Virus record (IMG/VR): IMGVR_UViG_3300028048_000001
Coordinates: 1 to 64,000 of that record
Origin: a virus
Lineage: Duplodnaviria > Caudoviricetes
Direction: 5' to 3' (one strand)
Length of the DNA stretch: 64,000 nt
Part shown: one piece after another, positions 40,828 to 49,522 of the stretch
Numbering within the stretch: position 1 is the stretch's first letter
Layout of the letters: each line of letters opens with the position of its first letter
Translations under genes and position numbers: made by a program
The notes under the pieces: generated by a model
Database searches by the model: none
Told to the model about the DNA's origin: nothing
Seen by the model: only the letters and a program-made list of their open reading frames with translations

Positions 40828-43434
40828 TTACTCCCTTCCTCTTAATCCAGAAACCGGTTCCATAGGAATTTTACTTCCTTTTCTAGCAAGACCATAATAA
40901 ATTTCTTGCCTTTTTCTTTGTAAATTCTTTTGAATTGTAAGTAAAGCTCTATATTTCTTAGTAGAACCAGTAGACTCTGCTCTTTGAATTTCTCTATCTA
41001 ATACTTTTAATTCAATATCTATTTCATCTAATATTTGCATTTTTTCTTTTCTTGAAGTATAAGCAGATTTAGCCCACATTACTATAGGTCCTAATACTGC
41101 TAGTGTAGCAGCACCAACACTAGCTCCTGCTGAAGTAGCAACTCCAGCAACAGCACCTATACCGGCCCATGTTATAAGAATTTTTATAGATTTAGAAAGA
41201 CTTCTTTTTACTTGTCCAGTGATAATTTCTTCTCTATAATCTGTAGATAATCCATTTTCTATATTTTTACAGAGATGATTAAATTCCATATCAAGATCTC
41301 TAGATAATTCTTTTTCTTTAGTGGATAAATTTTTTAATTTACTTTTAACACCTGTCCATGCTAATTTAAAATCATTAAGAGACAACGGTTTCTTTTCTGG
41401 TTGTTTATATTGTTTATTTTCTTGATCAGATTCTGTATTATTTTTAATATTATTTTTCTTTATATCTTTAGTATTATGAGCAGTATTATAATCTACAGCT
41501 CCAGGTGTTTTCATAGAATTTTTTATTTTATTTGCAGGATTAAGATCATTAACAGCAGATTTTAAATTTACTTTAGCTCTATTAATTGCATCTTCATTTA
41601 TACCCATAACTTGAGCACAGAAATTTAATCTTAAATTATGATCTTCATAAATATCAAAAGGCTCTTTGTCTTTATTATAACAAATATATTTGATATAATT
41701 ATATCTAGGATTTGCTTCTTCTTTACATAATTCTACAAAATCTGTAAATATATTATCATCAGATTCTAAGTATGGACTAAGGATTTCATAAACCAATCCA
41801 GCTTCTTCTGCAGTAATTGTACCAGCATACTTTCTATCATGTAGTTTATCAACAATAGCAAGAATAGGGGTATCAATTAAGTTTTCAAGAAGATTAGTTG
41901 TTTCATTTAAATTACAAATTAAAGATTTTTCATATGTAGTAAATCCTTTATTTAATTTTTGATTTTCTGATATAATTACATCATATTTACTTCTTAAATT
42001 AATATCAAAACTATTTTCTCCAAGAGTATAATATGCATAAGAATCTCTATTATAAAGTATATTATTAAGACAATTAACAGTAGTATTTACAAAATTATAT
42101 GCTTCTTCTATAGAACCTTCATAATTATAAGATGCAATATTTGTAGAAATATGATTATTAGCATCTATATAATTCATAATATTATCATCATTAATATCAT
42201 CTTCATCTCTTTTTATTCTATGAATATTAAGAGGAGATTCTTTTGCAGAAGTTTTCTCTATAGTAGATAAGAAATCTCCAGCTGTTTGAGAATCTGTAAT
42301 AAGATTATTTATCTTGAATGGATCAATTTCATTAGAAGTAAAAGATACTCTTTCTTTATTACCATCAGCGTAATAAATATCGTTATTTATATCGGCTTCC
42401 CAAATATTAGTAAGATTTTCTACCAAACTATCTGTATCTTGAATATTATTCTCTTTAATAATATTTATTATATTATGTGCTTCACTTCCAGATACAAATT
42501 CTAAATTTTCAAAAATAGTTTTAGGATCAAAATCGATATTATTAATTTTAGTAAAATCATTAATAATATTATTAATTTCTGTAAGGGCAATAATATCATT
42601 AAGATTAGATTTTGCAATTTCTATAAGAGAATCTATAGATTTATTAGAATCTAACTTCCATCTATTAATCCTATCCATCCAATAAGAACTGTTTTTATTA
42701 GAAGATTCTGTTAAAAAACTGATATTTTTATCAGATGCTAAAGGTAAAACTCTAGATTCTTCTATAGCTCTTTTATAAGAATTAATATCTTCTTTTGTAT
42801 TACTATCTCTTAATAAAAAATAATTAGTTACATTTTCTACTATATTTTCTACAGGAATTTCTATTCCTTCTGAATAACATAAATAAGAAACTTCTTCTAA
42901 TACAATATTCATTTTAACAAAAGGAGATAAAGTATAAGTATCTACTTTTTCACAAATAGAAAATATTTTTTCTTTATCTGATTTTGCTTTATTAGAAAAA
43001 GATTCTAATTTAAATTTTTTAGATAAATTTTTATGATTTTTAATAATTCTATCTATTCTTTTATACATTTTAGCAGTTTCTACTAATCTATCAATATTAA
43101 TATCTCCAATATTAGAAGATCTAATAATATCAAGACAATCTCCAAGATTAGCATTCTCTACTAATGGAATAATATCATTAATAACCACTTGACAATATTT
43201 TTCAAGCAATTCATAATCATCTTTTTCATATAAAGATTCAAGAACTGAAATTGCAGATTTGTAATCTGTACATGAATTAAAGAAATTTTCTAATCTCCAT
43301 TTATATAGAGACTTATTAGAATCATCAGATAAATAATTAATATCATAATTAGATGATTCTGCAATACTATTTCTTTTTTCAAGATATCTTTGTCTCTTAT
43401 ACACGTACTTTAAATTTAATGGTTTACTAACCAT
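40828..43434 (-). CDS. Putative virion protein with C-terminal hydrophobic hairpin
   Basis: 868 aa; late-type motif at 43462-43473; in the head operon. Confidence 0.55.
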   Translation of the reverse strand: MVSKPLNLKYVYKRQRYLEKRNSIAESSNYDINYLSDDSNKSLYKWRLENFFNSCTDYKSAISVLESLYEKDDYELLEKYCQVVINDIIPLVENANLGDCLDIIRSSNIGDINIDRLVETAKMYKRIDRIIKNHKNLSKKFKLESFSNKAKSDKEKIFSICEKVDTYTLSPFVKMNIVLEEVSYLCYSEGIEIPVENIVENVTNYFLLRDSNTKEDINSYKRAIEESRVLPLASDKNISFLTESSNKNSSYWMDRINRWKLDSNKSIDSLIEIAKSNLNDIIALTEINNIINDFTKINNIDFDPKTIFENLEFVSGSEAHNIINIIKENNIQDTDSLVENLTNIWEADINNDIYYADGNKERVSFTSNEIDPFKINNLITDSQTAGDFLSTIEKTSAKESPLNIHRIKRDEDDINDDNIMNYIDANNHISTNIASYNYEGSIEEAYNFVNTTVNCLNNILYNRDSYAYYTLGENSFDINLRSKYDVIISENQKLNKGFTTYEKSLICNLNETTNLLENLIDTPILAIVDKLHDRKYAGTITAEEAGLVYEILSPYLESDDNIFTDFVELCKEEANPRYNYIKYICYNKDKEPFDIYEDHNLRLNFCAQVMGINEDAINRAKVNLKSAVNDLNPANKIKNSMKTPGAVDYNTAHNTKDIKKNNIKNNTESDQENKQYKQPEKKPLSLNDFKLAWTGVKSKLKNLSTKEKELSRDLDMEFNHLCKNIENGLSTDYREEIITGQVKRSLSKSIKILITWAGIGAVAGVATSAGASVGAATLAVLGPIVMWAKSAYTSRKEKMQILDEIDIELKVLDREIQRAESTGSTKKYRALLTIQKNLQRKRQEIYYGLARKGSKIPMEPVSGLRGRE

Positions 43435-43510
43435 AATTTAGAGCCCTTTCATATAGGATATTAATATAAAGTTAAATTTTAGATATTTAAAGAAAAATAT
43501 AAAAAATAAA

Positions 43511-43605
43511 TCCCCATAGAGTTTTTTACTCTATGGGGTTAAGGAGAAATAATGTTCGCTGATAAGAAAAATCAGCGATGAGTGATAAAATGATATATTC
43601 TATCA
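43511..43605 (-). ncRNA. Putative early small RNA with anti-RBS segment CATTATTTCTCC
   Basis: Early-type motif at 43603-43619, internal hairpin, terminator at 43512-43538; twin at 46304-46404. Confidence 0.55.
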
Positions 43606-43617
43606 TTATTATAATAT

Positions 43618-44694
43618 TTAATTGAATTTATATATACTTTCACTGATTCTATCAGGTGTTACACCAAAATCTTTTTCATTAATCATATTATTTCTATGTA
43701 TATATAGATTTGCTCCAAATTGTTTGATAAATTCTTTTATTTGTTTCATCTTTTCATCAGTTCCAAATTCATCATTATCTGGATATACATGTACATCAAA
43801 GAAAAAAATTTCATAAGATACAATCAAATGAGTTATAAATCCTAAATAGCTACTTCCAGTAATAGCAGCAAATATACCATCTTCATATCTTCTTAAATTA
43901 TATTTTATTGATAATATATCAAACGGACCTTCTGCTACATGAATTTGTATTTTCTTTGGTATAGTTAAATCTATATTTGCTGGCATAACATACATTTTTT
44001 CTGTATTATCTATTTTATTATGTATATTATAATTTATATATCTTTTATCTATGCCTTTATATAAAATTCCTTCATTATACATTCTTCTTAAATTTACAAA
44101 ATTATTATCTAAAGATAAAAATCCAACGAAATTATCATTTAAAGAATTTATTATATTTATATGTCTTGTATAATAAGAATTATTATTTGTATTCATATTG
44201 TTCGATATATTATATCTATTATAATCTAATAAATCTTTTAAATTTAATATAATTTTTTGTTTTAAGCATTCTTCTATTGTTAATTCTACACCAATTCTAT
44301 TTTTAATATATTCAATTTTCTTATAAGCAAGATTTATATTATTTACATGATTATATATTGGATAATGAAAAGAATTATATCCTTTAAATTTATTATTAGA
44401 AATAGCTTTATTTATTAATTTATCAGTTTCTATTGCTATTTCTGGATTATAAATTCCCCATTCTATAAGTGTTTTACTATTTATAACACCAGATATTTGA
44501 CATTTAAAACAATGATATACAGGGCAATCATCTTTATCTTGTGGAATATGAATATACATATGTCCATGAGTTATATCTTTTGAATCCCCACATGAACGAC
44601 ACCTAACAATTATTTCACGATTTTGACTAGCTAATTTTGCTTCTGGAAAATTAGATATTATAAATTGAGCAAACTGCTCTCCAAATTCAAACAA
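43618..44694 (-). CDS. DNA primase (Zn-binding + TOPRIM)
   Basis: RCRSCGDS...YHCFKC, AEGPFD, YPDND, EKDFG. Confidence 0.85.
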   Translation of the reverse strand: MFEFGEQFAQFIISNFPEAKLASQNREIIVRCRSCGDSKDITHGHMYIHIPQDKDDCPVYHCFKCQISGVINSKTLIEWGIYNPEIAIETDKLINKAISNNKFKGYNSFHYPIYNHVNNINLAYKKIEYIKNRIGVELTIEECLKQKIILNLKDLLDYNRYNISNNMNTNNNSYYTRHINIINSLNDNFVGFLSLDNNFVNLRRMYNEGILYKGIDKRYINYNIHNKIDNTEKMYVMPANIDLTIPKKIQIHVAEGPFDILSIKYNLRRYEDGIFAAITGSSYLGFITHLIVSYEIFFFDVHVYPDNDEFGTDEKMKQIKEFIKQFGANLYIHRNNMINEKDFGVTPDRISESIYKFN

Positions 44695-44763
44695 TTATTT
44701 TACCCCCTTTCACATTTATAATATTTATATGAAAGGATATTTAATTTTCTTCTTTGAATCTCA

Positions 44764-45141
44764 CTATAAAAATATCATTAATATTAATATTAATAAAATA
44801 CAAAGTATAGTAGATTCTACTAATAATATCCAAGTATTATATAATTCATATAATGTAAGTATAGTCATTAAACCAAATACAAGTAATAATCCGATACTGT
44901 TATATAAAAATAATTCTAAAAAGAATTTTATTTTTAAATTATACTTATTACAACGCTTATTAATAAATGATAAGCAAATAGTTCCTATTATGCCAATTAT
45001 AAAAACAATTCCTATTGGATGAGTATAAAATTTATATTTTATGAAATAATAAATTGTACTAAATATTAATAAACAAAAATCTATTAAAAGCATACATATT
45101 AAAATTATTGAAAATTTCTTTAAATTATTTATAATTTTCAT
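44764..45141 (-). CDS. Membrane protein with about four transmembrane segments
   Basis: Hydrophobic segments; GGAG RBS. Confidence 0.6.
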   Translation of the reverse strand: MKIINNLKKFSIILICMLLIDFCLLIFSTIYYFIKYKFYTHPIGIVFIIGIIGTICLSFINKRCNKYNLKIKFFLELFLYNSIGLLLVFGLMTILTLYELYNTWILLVESTILCILLILILMIFL

Positions 45142-45195
45142 TTTAATGGCTCCTAAAAATAAAGAGAGAACATATAGTTCTCTCTTTATATATTT

Positions 45196-45663
45196 TTAAA
45201 TTTCTACATCAAATCTAATTTCATTATCATTTTGCCTTGATATATTTACAGCTCTACCAGTATTTTCTGTAGATATAGATATTACCATTGGAAGATTTGC
45301 TTTAAAAAATTCTTTCATCATTGGTAATTCACATATTATGAAAAATATATCTCTATATTTTAATAATTCATTTGGCAGTATATGAGATTTAAAGTTCATT
45401 TGTGATAAAGAAAACATAAATTTAGATTTATCTGTCATTAATGAATTAATGGTTTCTCCAATATGATTCATGCCATAATCATATATTATTCTACCAAGCA
45501 TTGATACATAAAAATCATCTTTTAAATTAAAAAATACTGGAAATAATTTACCATTATCATCTTCTGTAAACATTAATCTAAATTCATCATTTTTATTAGG
45601 ATCAATAGAATTTAAATCATCTAATTGAACTGACATTTTGCTTATATCTTTTATAGAACTCAT
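45196..45663 (-). CDS. Hypothetical protein (start revised to MSSIKD)
   Basis: AAGGAG RBS before ATG 45663. Confidence 0.75.
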   Translation of the reverse strand: MSSIKDISKMSVQLDDLNSIDPNKNDEFRLMFTEDDNGKLFPVFFNLKDDFYVSMLGRIIYDYGMNHIGETINSLMTDKSKFMFSLSQMNFKSHILPNELLKYRDIFFIICELPMMKEFFKANLPMVISISTENTGRAVNISRQNDNEIRFDVEI

Positions 45664-45689
45664 AATATCTCCTTGATAAAAAATAAAAA

Positions 45690-45899
45690 TGGGTGAGGGA
45701 GGGATCTCACCTCCCACGATAGCTTAGCAGGGTCAGACATTCTAATGCCACGTTCAATGAAGAGTCAAATCTGGCCAGATTTCCAAGGTTGAGTTATGGT
45801 CATTATTAATGAAATCCTCTTCAAAGCTTATCCTCAGAAAAACACGTTCTTCTTCTGATGCTATCTCCCTCTTGCGTCTATTACTTCCGCCATCACCCA
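45690..45899 (-). ncRNA. tRNA-like RNA with a ~150-nt domain in place of the anticodon arm
   Basis: Acceptor TGGGTGA/TCACCCA, Leu-like D arm, T-like arm GGGAGG-TGAGATC-CCTCCC. Confidence 0.7.
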
Positions 45900-45929
45900 T
45901 TATAAATAAGTACTTATTATAATAAATTA

Positions 45930-46175
45930 TTAATTAATAAATCCTAAATTATCATTTAATGCTTTTTCAAAATCTTTAAATTTTTCATTTGTCATTGTAA
46001 TAGAAATGCATCTTTTGTCATTAAAATTACCATGTATATGAATATTTTTAAAATCTTTTGGATCTCCATCTTTCATTGAAATAATAATACTATCTGTTTC
46101 ATAACTTTCTATAGCATACAAATTTATTACTATATCATCGTTTAATCTATATAACATTTTACAAGACTTTCTCAT
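45930..46175 (-). CDS. Small early protein, paralogue of 46525-46749
   Basis: YRLN...VINLY.IESY and F..FE.A....LGF shared. Confidence 0.75.
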   Translation of the reverse strand: MRKSCKMLYRLNDDIVINLYAIESYETDSIIISMKDGDPKDFKNIHIHGNFNDKRCISITMTNEKFKDFEKALNDNLGFIN

Positions 46176-46303
46176 TATTGATTTCCTCCTTTTGTTAAAT
46201 AATATATTTTATATCATATTTATAATATATCTTTGAAATGAATTTATAAAAATTATCCAATAGGAGGAAACTTCTATTAGTTTTATAAAAAAAAATAAAA
46301 TTT

Positions 46304-46404
46304 ATTGACCCAGAGTGATTAAACTCTGGGTCGATGGGAGAAATAATGCTGACCAATTATATTGGCCTAAAATGATAATAATGATAGAATATAATATTTT
46401 ATCA
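46304..46404 (-). ncRNA. Putative early small RNA with anti-RBS segment CATTATTTCTCC (second copy)
   Basis: Early-type motif at 46402-46418, hairpin GGCCAAT/ATTGGTC, terminator GACCCAGAGT/ACTCTGGGTC. Confidence 0.55.
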
Positions 46405-46524
46405 TTATTATAATATCTAATTGAAATTAGATATAACTTCACTAATTTTATCTGAAGTTATATCATAAAAATTTATTTATTACATACTTCTACTATCTCT
46501 CACAAATAATATTATTTTTTTATA

Positions 46525-46749
46525 TTAGTTTTCTTTTTCATATCTTTTAATATAAAAACCTAATGTATTTTTAATAGCATCTTCAAACTCATCAAATTCT
46601 TCTTTTGATAAAAATACTACAATTGTATTTTCGAAACCCATTTTTATTTCAAGTCTTATTTTATTTAATTCTGTAACACTATACATATAAGATTCTATAC
46701 CATACAAATTTATTACATTCATACTATTTAATCTATACATTATGTACAT
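46525..46749 (-). CDS. Small protein, paralogue of 45930-46175
   Basis: Shared motifs; AGGAG RBS. Confidence 0.75.
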   Translation of the reverse strand: MYIMYRLNSMNVINLYGIESYMYSVTELNKIRLEIKMGFENTIVVFLSKEEFDEFEDAIKNTLGFYIKRYEKEN

Positions 46750-47842: not shown

Positions 47843-49441
47843 TTAACACATTAAAATGAATGTTTCTACTTCTTCTATGATAATATTAATAGCTACTGTT
47901 TCCAATCTTTTTCCATTTATAGTAGGGTCTAAATCAACAATACTAAAATCCGATGAAATTATTGTTGCAATGATACTAAGAATATTATCAATAATATTTT
48001 CGTTTTTATATTTTTCTAATATTCTTGGATAAGAAGGAGAAGCTTCCACTAAGATTTTCTCTTTCTTATTTATAGTTTTTCTGCTTACAAGCTTTTCAAC
48101 TTTTCCAGATATAATATAAGGAAGAATAATCATGTTTTTACTTTTCAAAATCTTTTTAGCAGCGATAATTAATTTTACATATTCTTCTCTATTAATAGAA
48201 TGAATACTTTGTGTGTCTTTAAACCATCTATAAAACATTGAGAATATTAACTGTTTCTGGAATGGATTAATAGTGTAACCACCTTCTGGAGTCATTAATA
48301 CATTTCTCATATAAAGATCAATCTCTAAAGGATCAAATGGACCAAATTGAACTTCAATATTTCTCATGCAAACTTGTCCATTAATCTTATTCTGAAGATA
48401 TAACCCTTCATTCATTCTAATCAGATTGCTTTCAAATTTATCAAAATCTGATATAGAATCGTTATCTCTTTTTGATGAAGATATTGGAACATATGAAAAT
48501 TCAAATGATATATCTGTAATCTTATATGATGTATTTTTTCTAATACTTGCATAATTAAAACTAATAATATTTTTATCAAAAGTGTATTTCGGCATAATAT
48601 TAAGAATTATATTTTGTACCGAATCGGTAGAGTGAGTAGTAATATCTATTGATCTGATATCTTGCTTAATCCATATACCTTGATTATTTTTCTGATTAGC
48701 TATTACATTAGTATATGCAGTATCATATAATTTAGAATATATATCAATAGAAGTTTCCATATGAAGTATTCTATCATAAAAACTTAGCAGATAATCATCT
48801 ATATTTATATCTAATTTATGCATATAAGCATAATTAGTTAATAATGGTATACAAAGATCCATAATTATTGACATTTTATGTAATAATTTTGCATGTTCAT
48901 TTGTATACTGTAATGATGGGGATTTAATATTTGTATAATTTAAAACTTGATAATAATTATCATCAACCATCTGCTGAACTTTATTTGCTATATTAGAGTA
49001 TATAATATATCTTTCCATATCATAGAAAAACATTTCTATTGGATAAGATAAAACTTCAAATCTATCTATCTTAGATTTCATAGCAACTAATATAGATAAA
49101 TATTCATTATCTGTATCATAATAATTACAAAAATAATTTAAATATTTAAAAAGGTGCTCTCTCATTGCTACAGAATTGTAGCATTTTTTTGTTGATAAAA
49201 TAAATTTATTAAAATTATCTCCAAGACCAATAGATATATTGAAGTAAACACTTAAAGGTGCTATAAAAAATCCAGGTCTACAACTTATTATTACCTCTTC
49301 CATATCTTGAGGCCACCATTGGTCTACAGGAACAAATTTTCTTCCTTGATTCGATTTTGATTTTCTTTCTATCCTGTCCATAAAGTATATGGCAGGAACT
49401 TTCCCTTCTGTTATTTTATTAATGTCACTCATGTCGCACAT
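47843..49441 (-). CDS. Probable sigma-like promoter-specificity subunit of the non-virion RNAP (AR9 gp226/phiKZ gp68-like)
   Basis: Size, helical character, early-type motif at 49489-49505 and proximity to the chaperonin as in AR9; recognition by eye only. Confidence 0.5.
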   Translation of the reverse strand: MCDMSDINKITEGKVPAIYFMDRIERKSKSNQGRKFVPVDQWWPQDMEEVIISCRPGFFIAPLSVYFNISIGLGDNFNKFILSTKKCYNSVAMREHLFKYLNYFCNYYDTDNEYLSILVAMKSKIDRFEVLSYPIEMFFYDMERYIIYSNIANKVQQMVDDNYYQVLNYTNIKSPSLQYTNEHAKLLHKMSIIMDLCIPLLTNYAYMHKLDINIDDYLLSFYDRILHMETSIDIYSKLYDTAYTNVIANQKNNQGIWIKQDIRSIDITTHSTDSVQNIILNIMPKYTFDKNIISFNYASIRKNTSYKITDISFEFSYVPISSSKRDNDSISDFDKFESNLIRMNEGLYLQNKINGQVCMRNIEVQFGPFDPLEIDLYMRNVLMTPEGGYTINPFQKQLIFSMFYRWFKDTQSIHSINREEYVKLIIAAKKILKSKNMIILPYIISGKVEKLVSRKTINKKEKILVEASPSYPRILEKYKNENIIDNILSIIATIISSDFSIVDLDPTINGKRLETVAINIIIEEVETFILMC

Positions 49442-49522
49442 TTCTCCCTAATGCACAATATAGTTAATAAGTTATACTTTTTCAAGTATCATATTTATAA
49501 TATATATCTATTATAAATTTTA

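Follow-up and report, generated by a model that had tools for sequence, protein, structure and literature searches.

The window analyzed here, the first 64 kb (64,000 bases) of the complete 274,241-base phage record IMGVR_UViG_3300028048_000001 (26.6% G+C), belongs to a giant (jumbo) phage from the cattle rumen and carries two short intergenic units on its minus strand. These are read as members of a gene family for early small RNAs, conserved in AR9-like rumen jumbo phages and provided with a seed directed against translation starts. That the unit is a real RNA gene is held with considerable confidence, and on balance we lean towards the units encoding early, trans-acting RNAs that mask translation starts. 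The promoter-to-terminator non-coding design, the conservation, the covariation and the open, invariant anti-Shine-Dalgarno (anti-SD) sequence, as modeled, make up the anatomy of a trans-acting translation blocker.

An initial annotation had described two minus-strand units, each with an early promoter motif, hairpin, identical 12-mer and terminator, and all of these parts were found in place. The 12-mer is indeed the same in both: the plus strand of the window has just two exact copies of GGAGAAATAATG, one at 43543-43554 and one at 46337-46348, and on the minus strand of both units the unpaired 12-mer reads CAUUAUUUCUCC. The parts of the two units are as follows.

43604..43617, minus strand: early promoter of unit 1, ATATTATAATAATG; its last G (43604) is the predicted +1, and it abuts the primase stop codon at 43618-43620
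43499..43604, minus strand: predicted RNA 1, about 106 nucleotides (nt), from promoter to terminator
43604-43584, minus strand: hairpin 1 of RNA 1, beginning at +1
43578-43556, minus strand: hairpin 2 of RNA 1, from the predicted fold
43554-43543, minus strand: open seed of RNA 1, probability of being unpaired 0.99
43538-43512, minus strand: terminator hairpin of RNA 1, from the terminator scan, with its U tract at 43511-43499
46403..46416, minus strand: early promoter of unit 2, identical to that of unit 1, with G 46403 as the predicted +1
46295..46403, minus strand: predicted RNA 2, about 109 nt, with a U-rich tail reaching 46287
46403-46383, minus strand: hairpin 1 of RNA 2, from the predicted fold
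46367-46351, minus strand: hairpin 2 of RNA 2, from the predicted fold
46348-46337, minus strand: open seed of RNA 2, probability of being unpaired 0.98
46332-46307, minus strand: terminator hairpin of RNA 2, from the terminator scan, with a T run

The predicted fold of RNA 1 has an energy of -35.2 kcal/mol (z = -8.0 relative to shuffled sequences) and that of RNA 2 an energy of -27.3 kcal/mol (z = -5.3). When the two units were aligned on the minus strand, the promoter, seed and terminator could be aligned; the intervening stems differ. As in other intrinsic terminators, the transcribed strand of both units has a G+C-rich stem-loop with a U tract immediately behind it, and terminators as a whole are enriched in the region (11 found, including those of both units, against 1.2 expected). 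The strand was said to be free of open reading frames (ORFs), and no credible one was seen: unit 1 has none of 40 amino acids or more, and unit 2 is overlapped only by two mechanical ORFs with weak starts (46302-46442, GTG start; 46195-46356, TTG start), neither of which is preceded by a ribosome-binding site as judged by eye. Searching Rfam with the whole window at the gathering threshold returned only tRNAs, and relaxing E to 5 for positions 43300-46600 returned two chance matches, neither at the units. The genome-wide search for further copies that the annotation had proposed was also run, and GGAGAAATAATG was found three times in 274,241 bases, compared with about 0.06 occurrences predicted from base composition. 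All three copies of the exact 12-mer lie in non-coding sequence, two on the strand of the predicted terminated RNA of each unit and the third on the coding strand of a terminator-ended intergenic region.

Unit 1 lies directly 3' of the stop codon of a primase gene, which is also the position of the unit in the relatives that carry it.

43618..44694, minus strand: DNA primase gene (phrog_19847, E = 9e-42)

Primase homologues are common in rumen and gut metagenomes, so conservation of the unit, which the initial annotation had left to be checked, could be followed by comparing the DNA around them; one relative, G001, was compared whole. A unit was found directly after the primase stop in eight distinct metagenome contigs with 69-76% primase identity, and these fall into three unit types (L001 and L007; L003 and L009; L005, L008, L310 and L311). 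L009 is G001, a complete record of 287,868 bases, in which examination of the whole genome revealed one copy of the unit. The slot after the primase has no unit in L090 and L312 (73% primase identity), L087 and L089, and is filled by other early-promoter RNAs in L088 and L029. Because the unit is present in some relatives and missing or replaced in others, it is an accessory, exchangeable element of one narrow clade. Scanning IMG/VR with a promoter-plus-seed pattern gave no match; a seed-plus-terminator pattern was too loose, giving at least 119 matches of which only the known relative was real.

For analysis of the RNA structure, a covariance model was trained on six sequences, four of them from relatives of a single type and the other two being the units of the window. 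All unit sequences are predicted to fold alike. The model recovered the four sequences of the other two types with E values of 8e-5 to 0.0075, matched RNA 1 at E = 1.5e-12 and RNA 2 at E = 3.9e-17, and when run over this genome found the two units only. In the resulting ten-sequence alignment (two window units and eight relatives), 98.8% of the cells of the three helices are paired, and 19 of the 26 pairs have changed on both sides. The observed pairing was reached by 0 of 500 shuffles, and slid controls were 33-44% paired. In the terminator helix, 9 of 10 pairs have changed on both sides across the relatives; RNAalifold on a plain MAFFT alignment reported compensatory changes in 5 of the 10 terminator pairs.

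The structures also bear on the strand. G-U pairs occur in all three helices and would be A-C mismatches on the opposite strand, in 7 of 8 sequences folding is more stable for the sense than for the antisense RNA, and a U tract is found on the minus strand only. Together with the promoter direction, these observations indicate that the RNA strand is the minus strand of the window.

Within this turnover of stems, TATTTCTCC stays invariant, being the longest invariant run besides the GATA at +1 and the terminator core, and UAUUUCUCC is likewise the same in all ten sequences. The seed is predicted to be open throughout, with probabilities of being unpaired of 0.72-0.99 across the ten RNAs, compared with 0.36-0.48 for the remaining RNA. 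The 12-mer had been read as an anti-Shine-Dalgarno plus anti-AUG sequence; the family upholds the first half of this description, which is invariant and open, but not the second, since two relatives have CAC as the anti-AUG triplet and in two others the triplet is displaced by one base.

Early promoters of phage AR9 take the form AAATATATATTAT-(6N)-G(+1) and are read by the injected virion RNA polymerase (Lavysh et al., PMC5312081). Both unit promoters match this early consensus, ATATTAT-N6-G(+1), and so carry an AR9-type early-unit motif. The two share an identical 17-mer, ATATTATAATAATGATA, which is the commonest version of the motif and has five exact copies genome-wide. The form ATATTATA-N4-TG occurs about 50 times in the genome, mostly with a strong ribosome-binding site and an ORF 10-125 nt downstream, and it was because of this position ahead of ribosome-binding site and gene that the motif was accepted as an early-type promoter of the phage. 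By analogy with AR9, the units would be transcribed early by the virion RNA polymerase, starting at the G at +1.

In the mechanism that we propose, each unit stands alone as a gene for a small RNA of about 105-110 nt; the injected virion RNA polymerase would transcribe it early from its consensus early promoter and stop at the unit's own intrinsic terminator. The RNA would present two hairpins, the first of them at its 5' end, then a single strand some 17-20 nt long that includes (C)A(U/C)(U)AUUUCUCC, and last the terminator hairpin. Its unpaired part would pair with mRNA translation starts of the type GGAGAAAU(A)(A)UG, and such pairing would mask the Shine-Dalgarno (SD) sequence together with the spacer and so bar 30S subunits. 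Among the predicted targets, the best conserved is the start region of a gene resembling AR9 gp226, with two further early polymerase subunit genes also fitting in this phage, and the RNA may tune or delay the early-to-late switch. If the RNA does mask translation starts, it would add a post-transcriptional layer to the early/late program of AR9-like phages. Virulent phages have hardly been explored for regulatory small RNAs, and jumbo phages go unmentioned in a 2025 review; the unit offers a compact, covariation-supported RNA gene with a clear promoter, terminator and seed in phages that bring their own transcription machinery.

The closest known design is that of the Streptococcus csRNAs (CcnA-E and relatives), which are encoded in intergenic promoter-to-terminator units of 51-202 nt, at 2-6 copies per genome, and in which stem-loops flank an unpaired stretch complementary to the SD sequence and the start codon (CAU in 53 of 61, the rest being anti-GUG or anti-UUG); they are proposed to block translation initiation (PMC3091779). 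An unpaired stretch complementary to SD and start, held between stem-loops, is likewise present in the units. The csRNAs, however, are bacterial and have a CiaR-dependent promoter, whereas the units sit in a virulent jumbo phage behind a virion-polymerase early promoter, have three hairpins and UCUCC instead of CCUCC, and show no sequence or Rfam similarity, so that they do not belong to the csRNAs. For the CiaR promoter (TTTAAG-N5-TTTAAG plus a -10 box), no TTTAAG direct repeat was seen upstream by eye, a pattern search not having been made.

With the early units of AR9, the units share the promoter consensus, the injected virion RNA polymerase and a phage type with two multisubunit polymerases; the 41 early promoters reported for AR9 lie upstream of annotated genes, and the part of that report available describes no stand-alone anti-SD early RNA (PMC5312081). 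ONT-cappable-seq of phages 201phi2-1 and phiKZ revealed 11 small RNAs, of which three are intergenic and one is position-conserved among giant phages (PMC11512511). These resemble the units in having a terminator at once after the start site, but they come from Pseudomonas phages of another clade, no anti-SD seed or target has been reported for them, and their sequences are unrelated. In T4-type phages, PeSL (promoter-early stem-loop) elements are repeats of an early promoter together with a stem-loop in plastic regions that are tied to the gain and loss of small genes and to recombination (PMC2839356). Here the likeness lies in mobility, since the transfer of unit 2 with a primase relic (see below) fits such shuffling, and not in anatomy: PeSLs use sigma70-like promoters, halt transcription arriving from upstream by their stem-loop, and have the SD and ATG belonging to the next gene at their end, whereas the units have their own terminator and an invariant open seed and are not PeSLs. 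The c4 antisense RNA of P1 and P7 is a structured phage RNA that pairs around the ribosome-binding site of a phage mRNA and blocks its translation (PMC12197685). It belongs to temperate phages, targets the ant mRNA, and is unrelated to the units in sequence and structure. Finally, small RNAs derived from 3' untranslated regions can have their own promoter at the end of the upstream gene, as do DapZ and MicL in enterobacteria. The unit 1 promoter likewise abuts the stop codon of the upstream gene, and its terminator would also end the primase mRNA; unit 2 differs from this type in keeping only a relic of the upstream gene.

To look for targets among the phage genes, a crude gene call was made (ORFs with a recognizable SD; 235-239 genes), and duplex energies were calculated between the seed and each start region. 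The natural seed pairs with 24 start regions at -14 kcal/mol or below, compared with 7.9 +/- 7.9 for flank-shuffled seeds, and GGAGAAA is present in 8 of the 30 early genes and in 20 of the remaining 205. The candidate target that stands out is the following.

49425..49465, minus strand: start region of the gp226-like gene (47843-49432 or 49441), which has its own early promoter with +1 at 49490

The 529-amino-acid protein of 47843-49432 matches PDB 7S01 chain A (E = 1.4e-6), a chain whose 464 residues agree with the length given for gp226, which in AR9 is the subunit that confers promoter specificity on the non-virion RNA polymerase. By this match, the product is a putative sigma-like (AR9 gp226-like) subunit of the non-virion RNA polymerase. 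Its start region is the only top match common to both genomes, ranking 3 of 239 here and 1 of 259 in G001. In every phage type, 13-17 pairs can form between the seed and the gp226-like start of the same phage; no duplex has more than one bulged base, and the energies run from -15.5 to -19.3 kcal/mol. One position of the duplex pairs as A-U, G-U or G-C across the lineages. A weak conserved hairpin (-5 to -7 kcal/mol) whose loop shows GGGAG contains the start in this phage, L001, L005, L311, L312 and G001; in L001, L005 and L311, the 5' arm of that hairpin is almost the same as the phage's own seed sequence. Ten genes here have GGAGAAAT in the start region, and the G001 orthologue keeps it for three of the ten, two of which are polymerase genes: the gp226-like gene and a 703-amino-acid gene assigned to RNA polymerase beta subunit in PHROGs. 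Another of the ten, a 759-amino-acid gene, has the same PHROGs assignment. The three early-promoter polymerase subunit genes rank 3 (gp226-like), 17 (703 amino acids) and 5 (759 amino acids). The early-promoter genes annotated as beta subunit lie on the minus strand at genome positions 179598-177319 and 213319-211208 (phrog_3295 and phrog_3015), and their start regions, GGAGAAATAAT and GGAGAAATAA, contain 11 and 10 consecutive complements of the seed.

Several observations weigh against an early RNA that masks translation starts, and against the polymerase genes as its targets in particular. It is solely by analogy with AR9 that a promoter and a start site are assigned, and the motif of several relatives is off-consensus; the AR9 enzyme is reported to be sensitive to deviations from the early consensus (PMC5312081). 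The covariation alignment was fitted to the model structure and is hence biased toward that structure. Genes with an early promoter pair better with the seed than other genes (p = 1.7e-4). An equal preference for early genes is seen with a generic 16S-type anti-SD sequence, however, and the effect is therefore mostly due to the stronger ribosome-binding sites of these genes. Flank-shuffled seeds still rank the gp226-like region high (median 6 here and 8 in G001); 37% of the shuffles place it at rank 3 or better here, 11% place it at rank 1 in G001, and the joint chance of the observed ranks is about 0.04, in two genomes that are not independent, seeds and targets being related by descent. The other polymerase subunit genes of G001 rank 23, 58 and 209, and L090 and L312, which have no unit, keep the same gp226-like start region. 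Rumen RNA was available as assembled contigs from four metatranscriptome runs, which are unable to show an RNA of about 100 nt; no listed piece lies over either unit, many partial matches are chimeric or foreign, and these contigs carry no weight either way. Given the flank-shuffle control, the related genomes, the G001 ranks and the unit-less relatives, the non-virion polymerase genes are regarded as candidate targets and not as a finding, and we are inclined to doubt them. The fuller scheme is accordingly offered as speculation: one or two RNAs made by the virion polymerase might mask the starts of non-virion polymerase genes, chiefly that of the sigma-like subunit, and so act as an RNA timer for late transcription that is swapped or lost by recombination at the primase 3' end. 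The candidate link to the sigma-like subunit is directly testable.

Although the units had been called twins, they are not local duplicates: unit 2 comes with a relic of a primase gene and is closer to the unit of another lineage than to unit 1. Two features next to unit 2 are relevant.

46417..46473, minus strand: relic of a primase 3' end, 18 codons and a stop, start-less and fused to unit 2, reading NFYDITSDKISEVISNFN*
46257..46280, minus strand: partly decayed second hairpin with a T run, 3' of unit 2; one of the recurrent copies of a terminator hairpin of the clade

The relic is 82% identical to the 3' end of L310/L008-type primases, compared with 72% to that of the phage's own primase, and RNA 2 is 81-82% identical to L310/L008-type units, compared with 67% to RNA 1. 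The order 3' of unit 2 (second hairpin, early promoter, small gene) matches the order after the primase in L005 and L310, and the site of unit 2 is empty in relatives. From these identities and the shared downstream order, unit 2 is the "primase-3'-end allele" of another lineage, gained by recombination and not by local tandem duplication. The small proteins encoded 3' of the unit have 81 amino acids here and 60 in L005 and L310, with no evident similarity by inspection, an alignment not having been made, and the cargo of the cassette thus differs between phages. The unit family illustrates how RNA genes move between phage lineages as small cassettes. The recurrent hairpin is intact 3' of the unit in L001, L005 and L310 and also closes the RNA at 133 kb of this genome; its stem CCAGTAGGAG pairs with CTCCTACTGG, and its sites are 46257-46280 in the window, about 133460-133490 in the genome, 6200-6240 in L001, 6178-6210 in L005 and 4078-4100 in L310.

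The genes around the units are all on the minus strand, and those downstream of the units have promoters of their own. For the gene after unit 2, this is an early promoter at 46215. The gene after unit 1, which encodes 868 amino acids, is preceded by a late-type motif.

43462..43473, minus strand: late-promoter-like motif AACTTTATATTA, 5' of the 868-amino-acid gene and 3' of the unit 1 terminator

The AR9 late consensus is AACA-N6-TA (PMC5312081); AACTTTATATTA resembles it but has T at position 4. Since the late-type motif 5' of the 868-amino-acid gene is kept in relatives with and without the unit, expression of this gene is independent of the unit 1 promoter, and since both downstream genes have their own promoters, the short RNA is the sole product of each unit promoter.

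Among the alternatives to a translation-start-masking RNA, the one that fares best is a stable RNA whose conserved CU-rich open stretch is a recognition site for a protein or other factor (a ribosomal protein, RNA chaperone, nuclease or defense factor) and not an mRNA seed. The structure and the conserved open stretch would suit any function that needs a displayed single strand, the mRNA-target statistics are weak, and the proposed target is unchanged in relatives without the unit. We nevertheless consider it unlikely, as the invariant part exactly complements the SD-plus-spacer type that is over-represented in early genes (GGAGAAA in 8 of 30 against 20 of 205), the same or similar boxes occur in other non-coding RNAs of the genome, and the same design acts by pairing in known bacterial small RNAs.

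The plasticity of the slot could alternatively mean that the block is a regulatory or recombination cassette, in which the hairpins end the primase operon, the whole serves as a portable linker for shuffling modules, like PeSL in T4-type phages, and the transcript is a by-product. Such a view accommodates the slots that are empty (L090, L312, L087 and L089) or hold other RNAs (L088 and L029), the unit plus small-gene cassette in the slot of L001, L005 and L310, and the movement of unit 2 along with a primase relic. It is quite unlikely all the same: the promoter lies 5' of the hairpins and terminator, so that a short RNA is its only product, a linker needs no invariant open 9-mer amid covarying stems, and the SD and start codon of a downstream gene in which PeSL ends (PMC2839356) are absent here.

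A cis-acting leader or attenuator, in which conditional read-through of the terminator expresses the downstream gene, would have the same promoter-then-terminator layout, and 8 of the 11 small RNAs of 201phi2-1 arise from premature termination in 5' untranslated regions (PMC11512511). It is very improbable here, given that a conserved late-type promoter, kept in unit-less relatives, serves the gene after unit 1, that the gene after unit 2 is set apart from the unit by a second hairpin and has an early promoter to itself at 46215, and that the folds show no alternative anti-terminator pairing, a dedicated search not having been made. Hardly plausible is a replication element, with the promoter-driven RNA priming or opening an origin beside the primase; only the position next to the primase and the AT-rich surroundings speak for it, while unit 2 is away from the primase, the cumulative GC skew does not turn at the units, close relatives have an empty slot and the invariant anti-SD stretch would have no role.

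The plus-strand 9-codon ORFs that the initial annotation had pointed to (43552-43581 and 46346-46375) do exist, both ending in TGA, and all ten sequences have GGAG followed 4-5 nt on by ATG or GTG, but their translation as minigenes that trap tRNAs or ribosomes in the manner of lambda bar is scarcely credible, because the ORFs of the family have 9, 9, 1, 1, 22, 4, 22, 13, 8 and 8 codons (no short ORF of the bar type being kept across relatives) and encode unrelated peptides, a plus-strand motif precedes 0 of 10 sequences in its early-like form and 1 of 10 (L001) in its late-like form, and the neighboring genes, promoter motif and U tract all point the other way, as do the G-U pairs that would become A-C mismatches. 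For a small RNA, the GGAG-to-start element would instead be an anti-start element, with a mix of anti-AUG and anti-GUG comparable to that of csRNAs.

Among public phage records, the primase search found only distant kin, all of them AR9/PBS1-like jumbo phages (Staphylococcus S6 and MarsHill, Yersinia phiR1-37, Bacillus BpSp and Listeria LPJP1). Megablast and blastn of the region against public phage records gave no match, nor did tblastn of the 868-amino-acid neighbor protein against the same records.

The slot after the primase holds a variety of other sequences. In L088 (6070-6380), it contains an early-promoter RNA of about 290 nt, and in L029 (1140-1300) an RNA that a long stem closes around CATATTCTCC. 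The slot of a rumen group is occupied by a conserved block that carries GCGTCGATCA and GCGAGCGGTA, and yet another conserved block lies 3' of the primase in a human-gut group. These conserved non-coding sequences of the slot come from more distant relatives (L088 and L029; L054, L061, L066 and L077; L011-L022).

Between the two units, window positions 45236-45871 lie under RNA contigs, with depths of 178 (X1) and 42 (X2), and minus-strand features were noted at 45700-45912. This stretch includes a structured non-coding segment starting GGGTGATGGCGGAAG, which is kept between the small genes and the primase block in L005 (3850-4060), L001 (3810-4040) and L003 (3810-4040).

Similar boxes were also observed elsewhere in the genome. 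The third copy of the 12-mer, CATTATTTCTCC, lies at genome position 133369 on the plus strand, in an intergenic region of about 260 bases between two plus-strand genes. This locus (L320, genome 133270-133530, plus strand) has a late-type motif, AACATTATAATA, and a second box, CCTCCTTTC, and ends in the clade-recurrent terminator hairpin; the region is kept in G001 (181190-180780, reverse strand) with three anti-start boxes, and short ORFs on the opposite strand are not conserved. A further non-coding unit, at genome position 232962 on the minus strand, ends with TTTTCTCC directly before a terminator hairpin and is kept in G001 at 77674 on the plus strand.

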